Numbered from the stretch's first letter, positions 2 through 24,624 are shown. The stretch is 24,624 nt of DNA from a virus (IMGVR_UViG_2585427758_000008), one strand, 5' to 3'. The notes: generated by a model from the letters alone, not told the origin. Translations and numbers: made by a program.

Positions 2-24
2 CATAAGCGCTAACTTAAGGGTTG
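2..24. repeat. IS186 terminal inverted repeat (window-left end)
   Basis: Exact reverse complement of 1318..1340. Confidence 0.9.
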
Positions 25-172
25 AACCATCTGAAGAATGCGACGCCTCGGTGCCTCGTTAAGACGATGCCTCGCGTTCTTCAATTGCGCTTTGTAGGCT
101 GTCAGGGATACTGTCCCACGAATGGCCACCTGTAAGCTCCAGATGACCATTTTTGTTATTCTCCACAACGAG

Positions 173-1285
173 TTAGTTCTTCTTTTCGGATCCGGCACTT
201 CTGGGGGGGAAATCCAGCGATGGCTGGATTATGTCGTCAATTAAAAATGCGGCGAGTAGATTAGCAAATATCCACGCTTTCGCGAGTTCAGGTTCCTTTG
301 CACGCAAAGCATCCAGGTGCAGCAAACTTTTGAGCCGCTTAAAAGCCAGTTCAATTTGCCATCGCAGACGGTAACAATCAGCCACTTGCTCTGCTGAATA
401 TTCATCTTCCGGTAATGATGTTAGCAATAGCACATGGCCCGCTGCTTCCAGCGTTTCCGCCTGAACTACTCGTCCTTTTCGACGATTCTCGCTGAGCAGT
501 CGGGTTTTACTGATTAATGCTTTTTCGGGAGGAAGTGATACGGCAATGAGACGTGCCGGAAAGGGAGCTCCGGCTTTTTTATTACCTGAATTGCCTATCA
601 TTACAGTGGTTTCACCGTTCTTACCGCAATCCAGCCCGCGCAGAAAACCCATCATGTCAAAGCGCATTCCTTCTGCAGTTAACCAGCGCAATCCTCGCCA
701 GTGAACCCGGACGATATAATCAGCTTCTCCAAAAGCAAGTGAGCGGATACATTCGGGACGCGAACCGAATCCCCGGTCAGCAATGCGTATCTCGTCTGCC
801 GTTTGCGCAAATCGGTCCAGCCGTTCAGCGTCTCTGCTGTCGGTTAGCTCAAAATCAGTGAACTGACAGGTATGAGGATCATATCCCATATGTAGTCGCC
901 ATTCAGCGCTGCCGCCCCCGGGCGCACTGATTGCTGTTCCATCGACAAGACGCAATCTCTTTCCGCTTGTACAACCCGTAACTGCGGCGCGTACAGCAAG
1001 TGTTTGTGCGGCAAGTATGCCAAACCAGTCGGCGGCATTCCGCAGCCGCTTCAGGAGAGCCACGTCAGATAATGTTGCAACGTCATGGAGCTGAGCCCAT
1101 GCAGTGACTTCACGTAATGACATCCCCCCGGGGCCGTAAGCCAGCCCCAGACGTAGCAGAGTTGCAGCATCACGAATTTCGCGGCGGCGGGTTAGAGCCC
1201 CGGCATTACGTGCCGAAGTATCCAGTTCTTCGGGCTTACCAATATGGGCCAGAATTGCTGACCAGTTATCGTGAGAGTAATTCAT
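173..1285 (-). CDS. insL: IS186 transposase (IS4-family DDE transposase)
   Basis: ORF track 173..1291 begins at a GTG; the ATG two codons in (1285..1283) gives MNYSHDNWSAILAHIGKPEEL..., the InsL N-terminus as I recall it. It fills the space between the IS terminal repeats. Confidence 0.88.
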   Translation of the reverse strand: MNYSHDNWSAILAHIGKPEELDTSARNAGALTRRREIRDAATLLRLGLAYGPGGMSLREVTAWAQLHDVATLSDVALLKRLRNAADWFGILAAQTLAVRAAVTGCTSGKRLRLVDGTAISAPGGGSAEWRLHMGYDPHTCQFTDFELTDSRDAERLDRFAQTADEIRIADRGFGSRPECIRSLAFGEADYIVRVHWRGLRWLTAEGMRFDMMGFLRGLDCGKNGETTVMIGNSGNKKAGAPFPARLIAVSLPPEKALISKTRLLSENRRKGRVVQAETLEAAGHVLLLTSLPEDEYSAEQVADCYRLRWQIELAFKRLKSLLHLDALRAKEPELAKAWIFANLLAAFLIDDIIQPSLDFPPRSAGSEKKN

Positions 1286-1317
1286 CGGCACGTTAAATCA
1301 TATCAGGCGTAATACCA

Positions 1318-1340
1318 CAACCCTTAAGTTAGCGCTTATG
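1318..1340. repeat. IS186 terminal inverted repeat (window-right end)
   Basis: Exact reverse complement of 2..24. Confidence 0.9.
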
Positions 1341-1709
1341 ACCGGCACCCCCACCATCTGCCACGGCCATACCGGCCCGGATGTGAAACCGGGTATGACA
1401 AAAACCGATGAAGAATGTCTGGAACTGCTGGAAAAGGACATGAAATGGGCCTTTGCGGCTATCGATCGTCATGTTCAGGTGCCGCTTACCCGTGGTCAGA
1501 CGGTGGCGCTGGCTTCGTGGATCTTCTGGGCCGGTGAAACGAACTTTCGCAACTCCACGCTTCTGCGCCTGATCAATGCCGGGCAGATGCCCGCGTCCTG
1601 TAAGCAGTATATCCGCTGGATTTATTCAAAGGGGGTAAAACTCCCCGGTCTTGAGGCCCGCCGTTCGGCGGATGAATGGTTATGTCGCTACGATTTGCCG
1701 AAAGTCTGA
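1341..1709 (+). pseudogene. Phage endolysin (T4-lysozyme-like), 3' fragment interrupted by IS186
   Basis: Translation begins ...TGTPTICHGHTGPDVKPGMTKTDEECLELLEKD, resembling the T4-lysozyme YTIGIGHL motif region. The upstream part that should carry the catalytic Glu/Asp and any signal-anchor segment is absent; the reading frame runs straight into the IS186 repeat. Confidence 0.7.
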
Positions 1710-1821
1710 ACCGCTTCTGGCGACCACTCATGATTGCGCTGTTGTGTGTCGTTGTGGTGCTCCGGGGTGTGCTGTGGCTGCGGTGAATAATCCCTTACCG
1801 GCCCTGATTGCCGGAGGGTGT

Positions 1822-2172
1822 ATGGCGGCGCTGGGGGTGATGAGCGTGCTGGCTGCCGTGGTATGGGGAATGCACCAGAAGACACAGCGTCTTGAAGACA
1901 ATAATCATGTGCTTGTGCGTGAACGGGACGAAGCCCGTCTGGTGCTGGCAAACCAGCAACGTACCCTGCAACTCATTTCACAAATCAGTAAGGCGGCCAC
2001 GAATGAAAAACAGCAGAACATGCAGCACAGCGAGGAACAGCAGAGCATTGTCCGCCGGTCGCTGGCAACGGTGCCTGCGGCCTCTGTTCCTGTGCCTGAT
2101 GATGTGGCTGACCGGGTGCGGCGGGCCGTCTGTGAAATACGTGCCGGTGAAGCCGGTGCCGATCCCCGCTGA
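1822..2172 (+). CDS. Inner-membrane spanin (Rz-like), start uncertain
   Basis: Position right after the endolysin; N-terminal hydrophobic segment (AALGVMSVLAAVVWG) followed by a charged, Gln/Glu-rich probable coiled coil; GGAGGG upstream of the ATG at 1822. An upstream in-frame GTG would lengthen the membrane segment. Confidence 0.5.
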   Translation: MAALGVMSVLAAVVWGMHQKTQRLEDNNHVLVRERDEARLVLANQQRTLQLISQISKAATNEKQQNMQHSEEQQSIVRRSLATVPAASVPVPDDVADRVRRAVCEIRAGEAGADPR

Positions 2173-2374
2173 ATGGCTGGCTGACTGTCTGGTTCCTCCT
2201 GTGCCGCAGCCGTTCACGTTTGGCGCATCGGTCACTTACAACCTGCAACTGCTGGCGGTGATTAAGAACTGCAACGTGGACAAGGCCAGCATCCGCCGTC
2301 TGGAGGCACAGCGACAGCATGAATTTACTGATATGGCCGGAACGACTGCTGTTCCGGCAGGAAAGACGAAGTAA
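2003..2374 (+). CDS. Outer-membrane lipoprotein spanin (Rz1-like), overlapping the 3' end of the i-spanin gene in another frame
   Basis: ORF in the +1 frame relative to the i-spanin; lipobox-like LTGC after a hydrophobic stretch (LFLCLMMWLTGCGG); proline-rich mature region; extends past the i-spanin stop. Start codon not certain. Confidence 0.5.
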   Translation: MKNSRTCSTARNSRALSAGRWQRCLRPLFLCLMMWLTGCGGPSVKYVPVKPVPIPAEWLADCLVPPVPQPFTFGASVTYNLQLLAVIKNCNVDKASIRRLEAQRQHEFTDMAGTTAVPAGKTK

Positions 2375-2384
2375 GGAAAAAGGT

Positions 2385-2612
2385 ATGGATGATTCAGATT
2401 GTGCTCAGGCAGTCGTGGAGCGGGCAACAGAACGCGCCCTTTGTGACCGGCTGACACGTAAGTGCCGGGTGGAGGAGACTCCGGGCAGGCGTGTATGCGC
2501 AGACTGCGGGGGTGACATTCCGGCCGCCCGTCTGGTTGCCGTGCCGGATGCCATCCGTTGTGTGAACTGCCAGAGCATCATGGAGGCCGGTCATGTGGGT
2601 CAGCATCGTTAA
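2385..2612 (+). CDS. TraR/DksA-family C4 zinc-finger protein
   Basis: 75-aa product MDDSDCAQAVV... with CADCGGDIPAARLVAVPDAIRCVNCQ (CxxC-17-CxxC); AAGGA Shine-Dalgarno upstream of the ATG at 2385. Confidence 0.55.
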   Translation: MDDSDCAQAVVERATERALCDRLTRKCRVEETPGRRVCADCGGDIPAARLVAVPDAIRCVNCQSIMEAGHVGQHR

Positions 2613-2904
2613 AGATTATGTCGTGCCGATCCTGTCGGCAACAGCCACGGCCGGGGGGATCTTTATGGCGCTGATGCGCAAAACCTTTGTCCCCCGCGAG
2701 GCCTTTGAAAAACTCTCCGACCGGGTTGAGCGGGTGGAGAGCCGGATTTCCGGCCTGCCCACGCAGCAGGAGGTGAACAGACTCAATATCGAAATCACCA
2801 CCCTGCGCGGTGAGCTTAAGGCCACCAATGCCACCCTGAAATCCGTCTCCCACCAGAACGAACTGCTGCTGGAGCAGGCTGTAAGGAAAAAACACAATGA
2901 GTGA
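2593..2904 (+). CDS. Mu gp25-like small membrane protein (one TM helix plus coiled coil; possible lysis accessory)
   Basis: N-terminal hydrophobic segment VVPILSATATAGGIFMALM followed by a heptad-like charged region; GGAGG before the ATG; syntenic with Mu gene 25. Confidence 0.45.
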   Translation: MWVSIVKDYVVPILSATATAGGIFMALMRKTFVPREAFEKLSDRVERVESRISGLPTQQEVNRLNIEITTLRGELKATNATLKSVSHQNELLLEQAVRKKHNE

Positions 2905-3187
2905 TTTCATTACTGAAGATCAGCGTCTTGTCATTCTGCGGTCGCTGGCGGATTACAACGGCGAACTGGGCGAATCCGTGCTTCAGGACTGCCTGGATGA
3001 TTACGGCCACCGCGTGTCCCGCGACACCGTTCACACCCACATTGCCTGGCTTGCTGAGCAGGGACTGGTGCGTAAGCGCACGCTTGTTAACGGTTATTTC
3101 ATCGCTGAACTGACCGGCCGGGGTCAGGATGTGGCGGAAGGTCGTGCCACTGTTCCGGGTGTGAAGAAACCACGCGCAAGGGGGTAA
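2897..3187 (+). CDS. Mu gp26-like small protein (possible winged-helix fold)
   Basis: 96-aa ORF with AAGGA RBS, translationally coupled to neighbours; assigned by synteny only. Confidence 0.4.
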   Translation: MSDFITEDQRLVILRSLADYNGELGESVLQDCLDDYGHRVSRDTVHTHIAWLAEQGLVRKRTLVNGYFIAELTGRGQDVAEGRATVPGVKKPRARG

Positions 3188-3189
3188 CG

Positions 3190-3771
3190 ATGGATAAGCC
3201 GACGCGTGGCCGTGTACGCAAGGTGGATTTGCTCCCCGACAGCATCCGTAAGCCGCTGCTGGAAATGCTGCGTGAAAAACGTCTGACGCAGGTCCAGATC
3301 CGCGAGGAAATCAACCGTCTGATCCGTGAAGCAGGTCTGCCGGAAGAGCAGCAGCTCTCACCGGCGGCCATCAGCCGGGAAGCCTCCCGTAATGAGCTGA
3401 TTGCCCGTAATCTGCGTGATTTACGCGAGCAGACAAAAGCCATGATGGCCGAACTGGGGGATAAGCCGACCGGTGAAACCACGGCACTGATTCTGGAGAT
3501 GTCCCGTGCCCTGATGTACCGCCGTCTGCGTGCCGCCACCGAATCCCTGAACAGCGACAGCGATGTGGATATGCGCCTTATTAAGGACATCCTCCTGTCG
3601 GCACAGCGTGCAGAAAGTGCCGCCGAGCGCAGCATTAAGCGTGAAAAAGAAATCCGGGCCGCATTTGCTGAAGAGATGGCGAATGCGGTCACCGATGAGT
3701 TGCGCGGCGTGGATGGCATGAGCGAGCAGATCGAATTCCGTATCAGGCAGATGCTGCTGGGTAAGGCGTAG
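3190..3771 (+). CDS. Terminase small subunit (Mu gp27-like)
   Basis: 193-aa basic, helical protein directly upstream of the large terminase, as in Mu. Confidence 0.6.
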   Translation: MDKPTRGRVRKVDLLPDSIRKPLLEMLREKRLTQVQIREEINRLIREAGLPEEQQLSPAAISREASRNELIARNLRDLREQTKAMMAELGDKPTGETTALILEMSRALMYRRLRAATESLNSDSDVDMRLIKDILLSAQRAESAAERSIKREKEIRAAFAEEMANAVTDELRGVDGMSEQIEFRIRQMLLGKA

Positions 3772-3781
3772 GAGGTGAATC

Positions 3782-4030
3782 ATGGCAACAGATAACCGCT
3801 CACTGATGAGCAGTGCCCATCAGAAAGCATTCAGTCTTGCAACACAGTTACCTCCTGAAACCATAAAGGTATGTCGTGAGTTGACTGAACTCAGCATTGC
3901 CGGGGAAATATCCCTGGAACAACTGCATTCGCTGCTGGCAGAGGCTGCCACTGATGAGTTGAGCGGCGTGGACGTGATGACTGAAGAGCTTGAGTCCCGA
4001 ATCAAAAGCATTCTGACAGGTAAAGCATGA
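3782..4030 (+). CDS. Small protein whose C-terminus duplicates the small-terminase C-terminal tail
   Basis: Strong RBS (AGGAGG, 7 nt before the ATG). C-terminal AATDELSGVDVMTEELESRIKSILTGKA aligns with the gp27 C-terminus AVTDELRGVDGMSEQIEFRIRQMLLGKA; the underlying DNA is also similar (3950.. versus 3691..). Stop overlaps the large-terminase start (ATGA). Confidence 0.45.
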   Translation: MATDNRSLMSSAHQKAFSLATQLPPETIKVCRELTELSIAGEISLEQLHSLLAEAATDELSGVDVMTEELESRIKSILTGKA

Positions 4031-5694
4031 TGAACAAAGCCAGAGAAACGTCGCCTTCACTGATGCAAATGACGCCTCCCCGCAAAATTGATCTGTCCGG
4101 TGAAAAAGCCCTGCTGGGCGTGGATGTGCCGGACAGCCTTGATTTGCCCGGTGATATGCCGGTGTTTCTGGATTATCAGGCCCGCTGGTTTGCAGATGAA
4201 AGTCAGGTCTGCATCGCGGAGAAATCCCGCCGCACCGGTCTTACCTGGGCGGAAGCCGGGCGTAACGTCATTACTGCTGCAAAACCGAAGCGTCGTGGTG
4301 GCCGCAATGTGTTTTATGTGGGATCAAAGCAGGAGATGGCGCTGGAATATATTTCTGCCTGCGCGCTGTTCTCCCGTGCCTTTAACCAGCTGGCAGATGC
4401 TGATGTGTATGAGCAGACATTCTGGGATCGGGATAAAAAAGAAGAAATTTTGACCTACATGATCCGCTTTCCGAACAGTGGATTCAAAATTCAGGCATTG
4501 TCTTCCCGTCCGTCAAACCTGCGCGGCCTTCAGGGGGATGTGGTGATTGATGAAGCCGCGTTCCACGAGTCACTGGATGAGCTTCTCAAGGCGGCAATGG
4601 CGCTCACTATGTGGGGCGCGCGCGTGCGTATTATCTCCACGCATAACGGCGTCGATAATCTGTTTAATCAGTACATTCAGGAAGCCCGCGAGGGGCGCAA
4701 GGATTACAGCGTCCACCGCATAACCCTGGATGATGCCATTGCGGACGGGCTGTACCGTCGTATCTGTTACGTCACCGATCAGGAATGGTCACCGGAAAGC
4801 GAGCAGAAATGGCGTGATGATCTCTACAAAAACGCCCCGACCCGTGAGGATGCCGACGAGGAATACGGCTGTATCCCGAAAAAATCCGGCGGTGCCTATA
4901 TCCCCCACGCGCTTATTGAAATGGCGATGATCCGCGACATCCCGATTCTGACGTTTGAAGCCCCGGACAACTTCATCAGCCGTGCCGCATGGCTGCGTGA
5001 ATCGGAAGTTTTAACCTGGTGTGAAGAACATTTAAAACCGCTTTTAGAGAAATTAAATCCCCGTTCCCGCTTCAGCTTCGGGGAAGACTTTGCCCGCACC
5101 GGTGACCTGTCCTGCTTTATGCTGCTGGAAATCACCGAATCCCTGGCAAAGCGCGAGGTGTTTCGCGTGGAGCTGCGCAACCTGCCGTATGCCCAGCAGG
5201 AACAGGTGATGATGTACATCCTGACCCGCGTTCCGGCGCTGGTCGGTGCGGCGTTCGACGCCACCGGTAACGGCGGCTATCTGGCAGAGGCCGCACTGCT
5301 GGCCTTTGGCCCGGATATCATCGACTGCGTGATGTTGTCGCCGAAGTGGTACGGCGAGTGGATGCCAAAACTGAAAGCCGAGTTTGAAGATCAGAATATC
5401 CTCGTCGCCCGCCATCAGACCACGCTTGATGATTTGCGCCATGTGAAGGTAGTGAATGGTATCCCGCAAATCGACAAGGGGCGCACGAAGGACCAGAACG
5501 CAACGGCTGCGAACGCCCGCCGCCATGGTGATTTTGCCGTGGCGCTCTGTATGGCAAACCGGGCGTCATACATGGAGGGCTTCATCCTGGATGAATCAGC
5601 CTGTCAGGCGCTACCGGAGCGGTCGCGGGCAATGGAGGGCGGTTATCGTGATGACGATGAGGCATATCATGAATTTGATCGGGGGGGCTGGTAG
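4027..5694 (+). CDS. Terminase large subunit (Mu gp28-like)
   Basis: 555-aa ORF in the expected position and size; contains a DVVIDEAAF segment consistent with a terminase ATPase Walker-B-like motif. Confidence 0.85.
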   Translation: MMNKARETSPSLMQMTPPRKIDLSGEKALLGVDVPDSLDLPGDMPVFLDYQARWFADESQVCIAEKSRRTGLTWAEAGRNVITAAKPKRRGGRNVFYVGSKQEMALEYISACALFSRAFNQLADADVYEQTFWDRDKKEEILTYMIRFPNSGFKIQALSSRPSNLRGLQGDVVIDEAAFHESLDELLKAAMALTMWGARVRIISTHNGVDNLFNQYIQEAREGRKDYSVHRITLDDAIADGLYRRICYVTDQEWSPESEQKWRDDLYKNAPTREDADEEYGCIPKKSGGAYIPHALIEMAMIRDIPILTFEAPDNFISRAAWLRESEVLTWCEEHLKPLLEKLNPRSRFSFGEDFARTGDLSCFMLLEITESLAKREVFRVELRNLPYAQQEQVMMYILTRVPALVGAAFDATGNGGYLAEAALLAFGPDIIDCVMLSPKWYGEWMPKLKAEFEDQNILVARHQTTLDDLRHVKVVNGIPQIDKGRTKDQNATAANARRHGDFAVALCMANRASYMEGFILDESACQALPERSRAMEGGYRDDDEAYHEFDRGGW

Positions 5695-7283
5695 TGGGAC
5701 GCATCATTGATACTGACGGAAAACCTTTCTCCTTTGACCCGGAGATGCAGAGTGCCGCGCTGGATATTCCGCAGATTGCCAGCCGTTATATTGAACATCC
5801 GGCTTCGGGTATCACCCCGAACCGGGCGGCGCAGTGCCTTCGCGGGGCTGAACGTGGCGATCTGATTGCCCAGTCCGATCTGGCCGCTGATATTGAAGAA
5901 AAGGACACCCACCTTTTTGCGGAGCTGGGCAAGCGACGTCTTGCCATTCAGGGGGTGCCATGGAGTATTGAGCCGCCACCGAACGCCAGCGCGAATGAGA
6001 AAAAGGACGCGGAAATGCTCGACGAATATCTGCATTCCGCAGACTGGTTTGATGCCATGCTGTTTGACGCCACGGATGCCATCCTGAAGGGCTATTCCTG
6101 CATGGAAATTGAGCACGGGATGCTCGGTAAAATGCACATCATCCGCGCCATCCGCTGGCGTGACAGCGGGCATTTCTGCCTTAACCCGGATGATTTGAGC
6201 GAACTGCGGCTGCGTGACGGCAGCCATGCCGGGGTGGCGTTTCAGCCTTTTGGCTGGATAGTGCATCAGTCACGTTCACGGACCGGTTACGGTGGCGCAA
6301 CGGGGCTTGTCAGGACGCTTATCTGGCCGTTCATTTTCAAAAACTATTCCGTGCGCGATCTGGCCGAATTTCTGGAGGTGTACGGACTGCCGATGAAGGT
6401 CGGGAAATACCCGTCCGGGGCAACACCGGAGCAGAAAAGCGCCCTGATGCGGGCGGTGATGGATATCGGGCGACGTACAGGCGGGATCATCCCGGCCGGG
6501 ATGTCGCTGGAATTTCAGGCGGCAGCAAACGGGCAGGCCGATCCATTTGAAACCATGATTTCGTGGGGGGAGCGTTCCATCTCCAAAGCAATACTCGGCG
6601 GCACGCTGACCACGGAAGCCGGAGACAAAGGCGCGCGCTCGCTGGGTGAGGTGCATAACGAGGTGCGCCGGGAAATCAGGGATTCTGATTTACGGCAGCT
6701 GGCTGCAACCCTGAACCGCGATCTGGTGTATCCGCTGTACGCCCTGAACACCACGCACACTATTGATATCCGCCGTCTGCCACGTATCTGCTTCCAGACC
6801 AAAGAACCAGGTGATATCACCAAAATCACCAGTGCGGTGATGCAGCTCAGTACGGGGATGGATATTTCTGATCCCTGGATACGGGAGCAGACCGGTATTC
6901 CGCAGCCCACGCCCGGTGAAGCCATATTCCGTGTCCGTCAGAGTGGCAATGAACCGGCTCAGACCGACAGGGAAACACCACCGGAAAAACAGGAAAAAAC
7001 AGAGCAGACGGCGCTGTCAGCCAGACTGCCGGAAGCGAAAAGCACGCCGCGTGATGAACTGGATGATATGGGGGACGCGGTGCCTGCCCGCCGCTTACAG
7101 GAGGCCATCGACCCGGTACTGGAGCCGGTCATTGATGCCATCAGAACGCGGGGGCTGGCGGATGCGCTGGCAGACCTGCCTGCCCTTTATCGTGAAATGG
7201 ATGATTCCCGCCTGATGACGCTGCTCAGTGATGCCATGTTTGCTGCGGAAATGAAGGGGATGCTGGATGACACAGGGGATTGA
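5694..7283 (+). CDS. Portal protein (Mu gp29-like)
   Basis: 529-aa ORF directly after the large terminase; apparent GTG start overlapping the terminase stop (TAGTG); acidic C-terminal region. Confidence 0.8.
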   Translation: MGRIIDTDGKPFSFDPEMQSAALDIPQIASRYIEHPASGITPNRAAQCLRGAERGDLIAQSDLAADIEEKDTHLFAELGKRRLAIQGVPWSIEPPPNASANEKKDAEMLDEYLHSADWFDAMLFDATDAILKGYSCMEIEHGMLGKMHIIRAIRWRDSGHFCLNPDDLSELRLRDGSHAGVAFQPFGWIVHQSRSRTGYGGATGLVRTLIWPFIFKNYSVRDLAEFLEVYGLPMKVGKYPSGATPEQKSALMRAVMDIGRRTGGIIPAGMSLEFQAAANGQADPFETMISWGERSISKAILGGTLTTEAGDKGARSLGEVHNEVRREIRDSDLRQLAATLNRDLVYPLYALNTTHTIDIRRLPRICFQTKEPGDITKITSAVMQLSTGMDISDPWIREQTGIPQPTPGEAIFRVRQSGNEPAQTDRETPPEKQEKTEQTALSARLPEAKSTPRDELDDMGDAVPARRLQEAIDPVLEPVIDAIRTRGLADALADLPALYREMDDSRLMTLLSDAMFAAEMKGMLDDTGD

Positions 7284-8598
7284 TTTAGGTTATGCCGCCA
7301 CGCTTCCCTCAAAAGAGGCGGTAGCATACTTCCGTGTCAAAGGGGCGCATATCAGCTGGAACTGGTTCGAAACAGCCGCGGATGTTCATGCCCGCTCATT
7401 CACGGCAGCAAAAGCGGCACGCCTGGATGTGGTGACCACGTTACAGGCCGAAGTGCAGCGGGCCATTGATGAGGGAATTTCACAGAAAGCATTTATCCGC
7501 ACGCTGACGCCACGCCTGCAAAAGCTGGGATGGTGGGGAAAGCAGATTGTGGTGGACAGCGACGGTAACGCGGAAGAAGTGCAACTGGGCAGTCCCCGTC
7601 GTCTGGCGCTGATTTACAACGTGAACACCCGTGTGGCTTACAATGCCGGGCGTTACACGCAGATGATGAACAACACGGACACGCATCCGTTCTGGCAGTA
7701 TGTGGCGGTCATGGACAGCCGTACCCGCCCGTCGCATTCCGCCCTTAACGGTCTGGTATTCCGCTATGACGATCCGTTCTGGAAAACACACTACCCACCT
7801 AATGGCTGGAACTGCCGCTGCCGTGTGCGGCCATTGTCTCAGGCTCGTCTGGATGCAATGGGGTTATCCGTTTCATCCGGTGAGGATCATCTCTCCACCC
7901 GCAATGTTGAGGCTGGCGTGGATAAACAGACCGGAGAAGTCAGAGAAATGCCGGTGACCACATATTCAGATGGCACCAGAACCATGACACCGGATGTGGG
8001 CTGGTCATATAACCCCGGCTCGGCAGCGTTCGGCACAGACCAGGCGCTGATCCGCAAACTGATCGAGGTGAAAAGCCCGGCGTTACGGGAAATGGTGGTT
8101 CAGGAGATGAACAACAGCCCGGAGCGGCAGCTGGCGTTCCGCATCTGGGCAAAAAACATCATGCAGACCCGGCGAGGTGGTAACGATATCCGCACGCTGG
8201 GCTTTATGACTGAAAGCATTGCGCAGGCAGTGGAAAGCCGGACGGGAACGCCACCGGCCCGCCTGCTGGCGATGAGCGGTAAAAATGTGCTCCATGCAGA
8301 CAGTGTGAAACATCAGAATGACGGCATCGCCCTGATGCCAGAGGACTTCGGGCGCTTACCGGCAATGCTGGCAAAGCCAAAAGCGGTGCTGTGGGACAAA
8401 CGGCACAAAAATCTGATGTATATCGTGGAAAATAAGGATGGCAGTGTGCAGATTGCCGTTAATGCACCGTACAGTCTGAAACGTCAGCCCGACAAACTGG
8501 ATGTGATTGTGAATGCTTACCGGGTTATCAATATGGATAAGCTGAAATCGGATATCCGGGGCGGAATGCTTGAGGTGCTGGAAGGACAAATTGATTAA
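7267..8598 (+). CDS. Mu F-like head morphogenesis protein (gp30-like)
   Basis: 443-aa ORF containing the MuF-type segment PFWQYVAVMDSRTRPSHSALNGLVF...NGWNCRCRV; position after the portal as in Mu. Confidence 0.75.
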   Translation: MTQGIDLGYAATLPSKEAVAYFRVKGAHISWNWFETAADVHARSFTAAKAARLDVVTTLQAEVQRAIDEGISQKAFIRTLTPRLQKLGWWGKQIVVDSDGNAEEVQLGSPRRLALIYNVNTRVAYNAGRYTQMMNNTDTHPFWQYVAVMDSRTRPSHSALNGLVFRYDDPFWKTHYPPNGWNCRCRVRPLSQARLDAMGLSVSSGEDHLSTRNVEAGVDKQTGEVREMPVTTYSDGTRTMTPDVGWSYNPGSAAFGTDQALIRKLIEVKSPALREMVVQEMNNSPERQLAFRIWAKNIMQTRRGGNDIRTLGFMTESIAQAVESRTGTPPARLLAMSGKNVLHADSVKHQNDGIALMPEDFGRLPAMLAKPKAVLWDKRHKNLMYIVENKDGSVQIAVNAPYSLKRQPDKLDVIVNAYRVINMDKLKSDIRGGMLEVLEGQID

Positions 8599-8681
8599 CG
8601 GTCAGTGGCGGGGGTCGAACCCGCATACATGATCCACCCGGAGGCAGGCACCGACTTTACCAGTTAAGCGTACACTGACCG
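8599..8681. other. Structured intergenic element (nested hairpins; tRNA-like T-arm plus acceptor-like stem on the minus strand)
   Basis: cggtcagtg (8599..8607) pairs with cactgaccg (8673..8681); internal hairpin GCGGG-7nt-CCCGC; on the minus strand this reads GCGGGTTCGACCCCCGC followed by CACTGAC, resembling a tRNA T-arm and 3' acceptor strand. A T-rich tract follows on the plus strand. Confidence 0.3.
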
Positions 8682-8719
8682 CCTGTTTATTTTATATTCA
8701 TCCTTTATGCGGAGGCAAT

Positions 8720-9193
8720 ATGTCATCCATTGATGCCGCTGTCGTTGTTGACGTTACGCGTCTCCAGCGGGTGTTTGCCCGGCTTCAGTTTGTGGGCGGC
8801 GGAAAAGACCTGGCCCGCAGTGTGGCGGAGAGTCTTCTGTCATCGTCAGAAATGGCGTTTGAACAGGAAAAAGAGCCGGACGGCGAACGCTGGCATGACT
8901 GGTCAGATCCTTACCGCAAGTGGCGTACCCGTAAGGGATACACGCCCGGCAAAATCCTGACACTGAACGGCGATCTGGCCCGCCGCCTGACCACGGATTA
9001 TGGCGATACCTGGGCGCTGATTGGATCAAATGAACCTTATGCGGCCATTCATCAGTGGGGTGGCCTGCCTGGTATGCCACCGGGACCGGCGGCCATTGGC
9101 GCACGTCCGTATATGGGCTTTGATCAGGTGGCAGAACAGGAGATCATGGACGAAATCAGAAAACGCTTTAAAAAGGCCACAGAAACGCCGTAA
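8720..9193 (+). CDS. Mu G-like virion morphogenesis protein (gp31-like)
   Basis: 157-aa ORF with GGAGG RBS, between the F and I genes as in Mu. Confidence 0.65.
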   Translation: MSSIDAAVVVDVTRLQRVFARLQFVGGGKDLARSVAESLLSSSEMAFEQEKEPDGERWHDWSDPYRKWRTRKGYTPGKILTLNGDLARRLTTDYGDTWALIGSNEPYAAIHQWGGLPGMPPGPAAIGARPYMGFDQVAEQEIMDEIRKRFKKATETP

Positions 9194-22778: not shown

Positions 22779-23668
22779 TGTTTCATGTTGATAATAATTC
22801 CGGCGTGGCGAATATGCCTGCGCTGGCACCGGCGCAGAGTAATACCACCACCTGGTTTACCGAAGGTGACGGACAAAAAGGTATCAGCTGGATTGGTCAG
22901 GACTGGCTGAATATTCTCCAGGCCGAACTGCTGAATATTCTGGCTGAAGCCAGTATTCAGCCGGATAAGGCGCAGTTAAACCAGCTTACGCTGTCCATTA
23001 AAGCCATTATCGCTGCGAATGCCTTTTCCCGGAAAAATAACCTGAAAGAAATTGCTGATGCCGGTGCGGAGGCCCAGCGTCTGGCCCGTGGTTATCTTGG
23101 TCTGGGGACGCTTGCCACAAAAAACAGTCTTGGTCCCGCTGACGTTAATGCCCTGGCGAAGGATCAGAATCTCGCCGACCTGGAGAATAAGGGAACCGCC
23201 CGTAATAATCTGGATGTTTACAGCAAAAGCGAAGGTGATAACCGTTACCTGCGCAGGGAGCAGAACGGCGCAGACATTCCGGATAAAGGGGCTTTTATCG
23301 ATAACGTCGGTTTACGGGAAACGGTAAACAGGGCGGCGAATGCCCTGCCATCGGACGGCACCGCCGTTGCCGCGAATAGACTCGCCACCCCAAGAAATAT
23401 TAATGGGGTTCCCTTTGACGGGACGCAGGACATAAACATCACTTCTGGTATAACACAGCAGGATGCGGATTCCCGATATATCCAGGATATCAGGCTGGGA
23501 GCAGAGAACAGGCAGGTAATGTACGGTGGGGCATATTACTCTGCGTACGGTAATGTTATGGCAGGCCTGCAGATTGACAGTAAAGTTGATGCTTCAAACG
23601 ATTTTATAGCATTCAGACCCCTGCAAAAATTAGTCGGAGGTACATGGATTACGGTATCTCAGTTATAA
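22778..23668 (+). CDS. Tail fibre protein S: constant N-terminal part joined to the variable C-terminal part currently in the expressed orientation
   Basis: 296-aa ORF; the recombination site lies at codons 173-181, so roughly the first 177 codons are outside the invertible segment; C-terminus ...[18 protein letters not shown]. Confidence 0.8.
23295..23320. other. gix/hix-like 26-bp recombination site for a serine DNA invertase (left boundary of the invertible segment)
   Basis: TTATCGATAACGTCGGTTTACGGGAA; its reverse complement matches the Mu gix site as I recall it (TTCCTGTAAACCGAGGTTTTGGATAA) at about 22 of 26 positions. The inner half is repeated in inverted orientation at the window edge. 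Confidence 0.6.
23308..23376. repeat. Inverted repeat (69 bp exact) at the left inner end of the invertible segment
   Basis: Exact reverse complement of 24556..24624, checked base by base. Confidence 0.85.
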
Positions 23669-23719
23669 ATAGTCAGTAAATAATATATTTTAAAACAGAT
23701 TTATTTCCAGGAGGATTTT

Positions 23720-24241
23720 ATGGAACTAAAAAATATAACCCGTTATTATCCTGAAAATATGCCATATGGTAATAATGTTCAGTATTTCCAGAGTGAAGAT
23801 GGTAAGGATTTCTACGAATCCCTGCCATTATTCACCAAAAAATATAAACTTTGCATAACACCTGACAGCGGCGTTATCTGCTCAATATCACAGGACGCCT
23901 CGGCGCTGTATCCTGCGGGGTTTTCTGTGGTTGAGGTCGATGAACTCCCTGAAGGCACGGATATTTCAGGAAACTGGAAGTTTGATAATGGCATAATCTC
24001 CCGTATTCCGGTTAACTACGCAAGAAAACTGGAAGCAATGCGCCAGTCATATCTTAATCAGGCATATGAAAAAATTAATGACTGGAGAACGGAGCTACAA
24101 CTGGGCACCATCAGCGATGAAGACAGAGCAGCACTTACCCAATGGATGGCATACATCAGTCAGGTGAAGAAAATGGAACTACCCGCCATTAAAACAGAAG
24201 CTGAATTTAACGCCATTAAATGGCCTGAGCAGCCACAGTAA
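23720..24241 (+). CDS. Tail fibre assembly protein (Mu U-like)
   Basis: 173-aa ORF directly after the fibre gene with AGGAGG RBS; AT-richer than its surroundings. Confidence 0.8.
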   Translation: MELKNITRYYPENMPYGNNVQYFQSEDGKDFYESLPLFTKKYKLCITPDSGVICSISQDASALYPAGFSVVEVDELPEGTDISGNWKFDNGIISRIPVNYARKLEAMRQSYLNQAYEKINDWRTELQLGTISDEDRAALTQWMAYISQVKKMELPAIKTEAEFNAIKWPEQPQ

Positions 24242-24244
24242 TAA

Positions 24245-24264
24245 AGAAGGCCGGAAGGCCTTCT
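24245..24264. terminator. Bidirectional hairpin between the convergent tfa and alternative fibre reading frames
   Basis: agaaggcc - ggaa - ggccttct, an 8-bp stem, lying in the 31-bp gap between two converging stop codons. Confidence 0.5.
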
Positions 24265-24272
24265 GAATATCA

Positions 24273-24624
24273 TTATATACTTGCAGCCGTCACCCATGCT
24301 CCATTTAACAGATACTGCAACGGCCGGTAATACACGCCGCCGACGTTATCTGCCGTATTCTTACCGACATCCTGTACTTTAATTCCGGTAAGAACATTGC
24401 CGCCCCCCAGATTCAGATCCCAGCTTTCCCATGTTCCGGGCATATGTGCGGTCACCGACCCCAGTCTTATGGCGGTTACTGTTCCTGATGAGATAGTGAT
24501 ATCCTGCGTCCCGTCAAAGGGAACACCATTAATTGTGTGGGCATTTGCCAGCCTGTTCGCGGCAACGGCGGTGCCGTCCGATGGCAGGGCATTCGCCGCC
24601 CTGTTTACCGTTTCCCGTAAACCG
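24273..24624 (-). CDS. Alternative tail-fibre C-terminal variable segment, minus strand, 5' part beyond the window
   Basis: Minus-strand frame open from the window edge to a stop at 24273; encodes ...[18 protein letters not shown]...YRPLQYLLNGAWVTAASI, parallel to the C-terminus of S. Confidence 0.65.
   Translation of the reverse strand, partial: GLRETVNRAANALPSDGTAVAANRLANAHTINGVPFDGTQDITISSGTVTAIRLGSVTAHMPGTWESWDLNLGGGNVLTGIKVQDVGKNTADNVGGVYYRPLQYLLNGAWVTAASI
24556..24624. repeat. Inverted repeat at the right inner end of the invertible segment, truncated by the window edge
   Basis: Exact reverse complement of 23308..23376; the last 13 bases ttcccgtaaaccg form the inner half of a second gix/hix-like site. 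Confidence 0.85.

Follow-up and report, generated by a model that had tools for sequence, protein, structure and literature searches.

The window analyzed here is an entire contig of 24,624 bp (JORY01000060.1) from the draft assembly GCA_000713435.1, and its first base lies one base before an insertion sequence. The element at positions 2-1340 was found to be a complete IS186/IS421 (IS4 family) of 1,339 bp with perfect 23-bp terminal inverted repeats, as the earlier note had proposed; its length, its repeats and the identity of its transposase all agree with this assignment. The left repeat (CATAAGCGCTAACTTAAGGGTTG) occupies positions 2-24 and the right repeat, its reverse complement, positions 1318-1340. 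The 370-aa transposase (DDE_Tnp_1; Pfam PF01609, E = 1.6e-26) is encoded on the minus strand at 173-1285; its transcription runs leftward, against that of the phage late genes. It is identical in all 370 residues to the CDS annotated as RefSeq WP_001300563.1 in E. coli 14EC001, where the corresponding copy, located at ybiX-fiu and annotated as 'IS4-like element IS421 family', differs from the window element by 1 nucleotide. By megablast, copies with at least 99% nucleotide identity, annotated as 'IS4-like element IS421 family transposase', were found in 2723 E. coli records. The window copy is complete and, as judged from its sequence, apparently functional.

Phage DNA begins directly at the right edge of the element. 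The region 1341-3200 shows 100% identity to a Mu-like prophage carried by E. coli AF39 (complete genome NZ_OZ547136.1). That prophage has an intact lysozyme gene (lys) for 166 aa at 5869-6369 of the AF39 locus L001, and window positions 1341-1709 match codons 45-166 of it, in frame and with 100% identity. The claim that an endolysin reading frame runs on from base 1341 was thus confirmed by aligning the fragment to an intact Mu-like endolysin. In this IS-free relative, base 1341 corresponds to codon 45 of the 166-aa gene and not to an intact start. The window ORF matches Phage_lysozyme (PF00959) with 110 bits at profile positions 15-124 of 125, while the intact protein covers positions 3-124. 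Since the match begins at profile position 15, the window ORF is N-terminally truncated.

The right inverted repeat ends in an ATG that is read in the same frame as the endolysin 3′ part. Thus, a 123-aa ORF on the plus strand (1338-1709) consists of an IS-derived ATG (1338-1340) and endolysin codons 45-166. This ORF was deposited as KEN31270.1, 'phage lysozyme family protein', of E. coli 7-233-03_S3_C2, which is the sole NCBI accession for it. None of the Shine-Dalgarno-like tetramers AGGA, GGAG and GAGG is present in the 20 bases before the ORF (caacccttaagttagcgctt). The fragment had been described as having neither a start codon nor a ribosome-binding site of its own; the latter part of this description holds, while the former must be corrected because the IS end supplies an in-frame ATG.

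A series of intact late genes follows on the plus strand. An Rz-like i-spanin gene (DUF2570; 1822-2172) is overlapped at its end by the gene of an Rz1-like o-spanin LysC (2156-2374). Next come a TraR/DksA zinc-finger gene (2385-2612), a gene for a DUF2730 protein (PF10805; 2593-2904) and a gp26-like gene (2897-3187). The DUF2730 family includes the Mu gp25 'releasin', which frees SAR endolysins in the holin-less phage Mu (PMC9239132). Closely packed full-length genes occupy positions 3190-9193, namely Gp27/TerS (3190-3771), TerL (4030-5694), and the Mu-type portal, Mu F-like and G-like genes; the portal gene begins the series of Mu F, G, protease, capsid and tail genes from 5694 onward. When the AF39 CDSs were compared in translation with the window, none of the 29 other late-region CDSs proved to be shortened; identities are 96-100%, and the tail-fibre genes of a flipped segment match their alternative copies. 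The late side of the prophage in the window is marked by Phage_Mu_Gp27, Portal_Mu, Phage_Mu_F, Mu-like_Pro_N and Mu-like_gpT domains. The Mu-like element is present in about 230 complete E. coli genomes and in two records of Stx-converting phages, whereas none of the isolated phages resembles it closely. No deposited phage has a protein with at least 60% identity to the endolysin, other than the two Mu-like inserts in the Stx-converting phage records. Thus, the endolysin is less than 60% identical to Mu gp22.

Three further features of the late region were observed. Inverted repeats at 23308-23448 and 24484-24624 (78 nucleotides at 96% and 50 nucleotides at 84%) flank a tail-fibre/assembly segment of about 1.3 kb (~23290-24624). 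Its orientation is opposite to that in AF39, where a recombinase (Gin-like) gene adjoins it; this segment is an invertible host-range switch of the Mu G-segment type. Immediately before the large terminase gene, the Gp27/TerS-like protein and the product of the next ORF (82 aa) end in C-terminal stretches of 31 residues (3676-3768 and 3935-4027, respectively) that are 58% identical, apparently a short tail that has been duplicated. RefSeq annotates a 'tRNA-OTHER' in AF39 (L010, 11260-11339, minus strand; window ~8600-8679) between the Mu F-like and G-like genes. Neither ARAGORN nor Rfam at its gathering thresholds detected a tRNA at window ~8600-8679, and the AF39 annotation is probably spurious.

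The right end of the contig coincides with the outer edge of the inverted repeat of the tail-fibre invertible segment. Both contig ends are therefore assembly breaks caused by repeats, and the left flank of the IS lies outside the window. The single left-flank base at position 1 (C, plus strand) fits the last base of a left 10-bp target duplication ACCGGCACCC. Possible junction products were built from the first 44 codons of the AF39 gene, 0 to 14 right-flank bases and the IS, and seven of them were looked up as exact sequences, for duplications of 0, 8, 9, 10, 11, 12 and 14 bp. The protein collection contained the product for 10 bp (MPKLP...YLDPTGTP, 48 aa, ending at a TAA that reaches across the IS edge) and none of the six products for 0, 8, 9, 11, 12 and 14 bp. 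The TAA is created by the bases CATAA of the left inverted repeat. Among the names of the 48-aa product is 'lysozyme domain protein [Escherichia coli 7-233-03_S3_C2]', the strain to which the 123-aa ORF of the window also belongs. The product is named for a second strain, 3-073-06_S4_C1, as well.

The DNA of the left junction was read in a sister strain (GCA_000704965.1), on contig JNRZ01000037.1 (hereafter L009), while the support from the strain of the window is the exact 48-aa protein record. The gene order of L009 is Mu-type transposase A and B genes, kil, gam, gemA, a Mor-family activator gene, the 48-aa ORF, and IS186 up to the contig end, with the IS oriented as in the window. The corresponding domains are HTH_Tnp_Mu_1/Mu-transpos_C, Phage-MuB_C, Kil, Gam, GemA and Mor, and this early half is collinear with AF39 at 99.5%. 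With a slash at the IS edge, the left junction in L009 reads ...GACCCC-ACCGGCACCC/CATAAGCG, or in a longer reading ...CTCGACCCC ACCGGCACCC/CATAAGCGCTAAC. Laid out for comparison, the left junction is ...TATCTCGACCCC ACCGGCACCC/CATAAGCGC..., the right junction in the window is ...GCGCTTATG/ACCGGCACCC CCACCATC..., and the intact AF39 site is GACCCC ACCGGCACCC CCACC. It was thus revealed that a target-site duplication of 10 bp, ACCGGCACCC, stands on both sides, the right copy at 1341-1350 and the left copy in L009 and in the metagenome contig L011. The IS186 copy at ybiX-fiu has a duplication of 10 bp, too (GGCCTGCGCC). The earlier note had expected a 5′ endolysin part ending at the IS186 repeat and a duplication of 10-12 bp matching the bases at 1341; both were found, the former as the 48-aa start followed by the IS in L009, and neither of the outcomes named in the note as refuting was observed.

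It was considered whether the IS had been misjoined to phage DNA at a repeat during assembly, with the endolysin being in fact intact. The window is a draft contig that begins 1 base before the IS, which fits such an artefact. However, the same junctions were recovered by different assemblers in different projects. They occur in two NCBI isolates, and the right junction is identical in five ENA metagenome contigs (MEGAHIT and SPAdes) and the left junction in one JGI metagenome contig; the JGI scan for the left junction gave a single 2.8-kb contig, broken about 100 bp into the IS. A proper target duplication at both junctions also argues against a misjoin, and this explanation is extremely unlikely.

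No contig spanning the whole IS was found, and every short-read assembly examined breaks within the element. The IS-lys junction was absent from all 5426 complete E. coli genomes, and the left junction had no match in the GTDB representative genomes. With no contig across the IS, the matching duplication is the basis for placing the two halves side by side. The two halves might each abut an IS186 without being neighbors any longer, after an inversion or deletion between copies or through the presence of two IS copies with intervening DNA. Such a rearrangement would be consistent with the lack of a contig across the IS, with the multiple IS186 copies in E. coli (a median of 3 matching places per element-bearing genome, and up to 22) and with documented IS186-IS186 recombination (PMC6925257). 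Recombination with a different IS186 copy, however, would swap one flank, whereas here the same 10-bp direct repeat is found on both flanks and the intact gene is rebuilt exactly, which is the signature of a single transposition. The rearrangement is therefore very unlikely, and I infer that the two contigs adjoin each other in the chromosome.

What does the insertion separate? Residues 5-161 of the intact allele align to R (R21), the SAR endolysin of phage 21 (3HDE; E = 4e-26, 95 bits), as well as to 3HDF and to E. coli RrrD (4ZPU). The alignment to 3HDE/3HDF places the catalytic motif E34-x8-D43-x5-T49 in the intact allele. Residues 12-29 (LIALVLAGAGTFTIATHY), shared by the intact allele and the 48-aa fragment and absent from the window ORF, align to the N-terminal membrane (SAR) segment of R21. 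The IS sits between P44 and T45. Thus, the 48-aa 5′ piece has a basic cytoplasmic tail (R9, K10 and K11), the SAR segment, Glu34 and Asp43, while the 3′ piece of 122 codons has the remaining lysozyme fold and, of the triad, Thr49 only. The prediction that the catalytic acidic residues and the signal-anchor segment lie on the far side of the IS was borne out, although Thr49 remains on the 3′ side.

Because the IS cuts off the SAR segment and both catalytic acids, Glu34 and Asp43, from Thr49 and the remaining fold, neither piece should be an active muramidase. It might be argued that the 123-aa ORF is expressed from the IS ATG and functions as a cytoplasmic lysozyme-fold protein or by reassembly with the 48-aa fragment. 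Its ATG is in frame, gene callers annotate the ORF, and about 88% of the Pfam lysozyme domain is retained together with Thr49. On the other hand, the ORF has neither a Shine-Dalgarno sequence nor a detected promoter upstream, and it lacks Glu34, Asp43 and the SAR segment required for export. In phage Mu, replacement of the homologous Glu (E37A) is enough on its own to inactivate gp22, and extensive nonsense screens recovered no other lysis gene (PMC9239132). A functional 123-aa product is hardly credible. The endolysin is almost certainly inactivated, so that the prophage would be unable to degrade the cell wall and should not lyse its host. The endolysin of another prophage could complement the defect in trans.

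Taken together, I put the probability at about 90% that IS186 transposed into the lys gene of a Mu-like prophage, splitting the gene and exerting polarity. In this reading, an active-looking IS186 copy entered codon 44/45 of a SAR-type endolysin gene (phage 21 R-like, GH24) and duplicated the 10 bp ACCGGCACCC. The IS, the split, the duplication, the loss of the catalytic acids from the 3′ ORF and the intact neighboring genes are seen in the sequence, while the failure to lyse and the polarity are predicted from it. The 48-aa 5′ piece would remain under its native late promoter and is halted by the TAA formed at the IS end, while the 122-codon 3′ piece is preceded only by the terminal ATG of the IS, without a ribosome-binding site. 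The late transcript would be untranslated from the TAA at the IS edge and would then continue as 1.3 kb of antisense IS RNA including a terminator-like hairpin. With translation ended at the IS edge and 1.3 kb of untranslated antisense RNA to follow, less transcription from the late promoter should reach the spanin, releasin, terminase, portal and head genes. A lysis defect and displacement of the late promoter had been offered as alternatives in the earlier note; they are not alternatives, as the same insertion would lead to both.

In classical polar insertions, the gene at the head of an operon is inactivated by the IS that enters it, and weaker expression of the genes behind it is expected. 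Margolin et al. reportedly found in 1989 that the Mu Plys transcript extends through the head genes. The Plys late transcript of Mu has lys as its first gene (PMC9239132). From lys to the F-like gene of the present prophage, genes overlap or are separated by gaps of a few bases, and the first gaps of more than 100 bp occur after F and after G. From this spacing and the Mu precedent, the genes up to 9193 would be on the same late transcript as lys and would be exposed to the polarity of the IS. Lower expression of the spanins, the releasin and the packaging genes is likely, and the prophage is probably unable to package efficiently.

A GC-rich terminator-like hairpin with a U-run (UUUUUUAUUA) is located at 555-584 on the plus strand, in phage sense and antisense to the transposase (-16.5 kcal/mol, z = -2.25). 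The hairpin, a candidate source of the polarity, could stop transcripts that enter IS186 from outside; terminator-like sites numbered 2 against 2.8 expected in shuffled sequences, so this one is not distinguished from chance. A consensus scan of positions 1-2600 detected no sigma-70-like promoter on either strand, the scan being insensitive enough to have missed the IS's own transposase promoter. In the literature examined, no support was found for an outward-reading IS186 promoter that drives downstream genes. A single 140-aa Mor/C-family activator gene lies 71 bp upstream of lys, outside the window (L001, 5375-5868; L009, 9507-10000). The late promoter is presumed to be located in the 71-bp Mor-lys spacer, on the other contig.

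The element also has ends that affect any gene it enters. IS186 starts with CATAA (window 2-6) and finishes with TTATG (1336-1340). Thus, for any insertion, incoming translation meets a stop within 1, 4 or 20 codons, and in one of three frames the downstream fragment gains an outward ATG. This accounts for the annotation of the two halves as separate proteins. The 'lysozyme domain protein' and the 'phage lysozyme family protein' of GenBank represent one IS-disrupted pseudogene.

How widespread is the disrupted allele? For the 48-aa 5′ junction product, the collection has 79 indexed blocks, which cover NCBI isolates, Logan and ENA metagenomes; 54 contigs were listed for it and 24 were read, compared with 130 contigs listed for the intact 166-aa protein of identical sequence. 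The presence of the 48-aa product in 79 blocks indicates that the disrupted allele is inherited and fairly widespread, which may reflect a single successful clone, sampling or selection. Short N-terminal fragments named 'lysozyme, partial' in the cluster suggested recurrent IS hits, but this idea was rejected because they run off contig ends and contain no IS-derived residues. The endolysin is the sole visibly damaged gene, which suggests that the event is fairly recent. The junction is a handy clonal marker for tracking strains that carry the allele. It also bears on the prediction of viability: tools based on gene content would score the prophage as 'intact', yet lysis should fail.

Has lys::IS186 spread along with a successful E. 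coli lineage, as a stable and heritable 'grounding' of a Mu-like prophage whose other genes are all intact? If true, stable grounding implies selection for retention of the prophage while the release of virions is blocked. A Mu-like phage, however, destroys its induced host by replicative transposition, with or without lysis. An induced host would therefore not be spared by the loss of lysis and there is no strong selective argument; the grounding idea is very unlikely. Disruption of prophage genes by IS elements is a well-known route of prophage decay. The lys::IS186 allele, the product of a transposition in the preferred reading, is an ordinary gene disruption of an already known type and raises no new biological question.

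In comparison with the IS186/IS421 reference, the window element is the same in length, inverted repeats, transposase, 10-bp duplication and GC-rich target, and no difference was found within the element. The target itself deviates in part. The preferred IS186 target is GGGG(N6/N7)CCCC, as cited in PMC6925257, and the target of the ybiX-fiu copy (GGGG CCTGCG CCCC) fits this published form. In contrast, the lys target (GACCCC-ACCGGCA-CCCCC) has C-runs on both sides (CCCC N7 CCCCC). It is GC-rich with a 3′ C-run, but its 5′ run is of C and not of G; it thus carries half of the consensus, which is a preference and not a requirement. In many genomes, the IS matches extend to window position 1360. 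These were rejected as a shared flank, since the ybiX-fiu copy shows that they reflect a chance likeness of two C-rich targets.

The intact endolysin resembles phage 21 R and RrrD in having the same Gly/Ala-rich N-terminal membrane segment, the E-x8-D-x5-T triad and the PF00959 domain, with moderate similarity. The window, in contrast, holds a split gene with no more than residues 45-166.

The lysis cassette has the order known from Mu (gp22, the gp23/23.1 spanins and the gp25 releasin; Chamblee et al. 2022, PMC9239132). The order common to both is a Mor/C-family activator, the endolysin, overlapping i- and o-spanins, a small zinc-finger gene, DUF2730, gp26/gp27-like genes and the terminase. 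No holin-like gene was seen in the lysis cassette, as in Mu. R9, K10 and K11 precede the SAR segment here, and K6 and K7 do likewise in Mu gp22 (PMC9239132). The features of the Mu-type holin-less system are present, namely a DUF2730 gene downstream of the gene for a SAR endolysin with a basic tail, and the releasin dependence is putative. In contrast to Mu, which has separate mor and C genes, this prophage has a single Mor-family gene directly upstream of lys. It also differs from the cryptic E. coli prophages 'grounded' by IS elements, in that every other late gene is intact here and decay is not yet visible.
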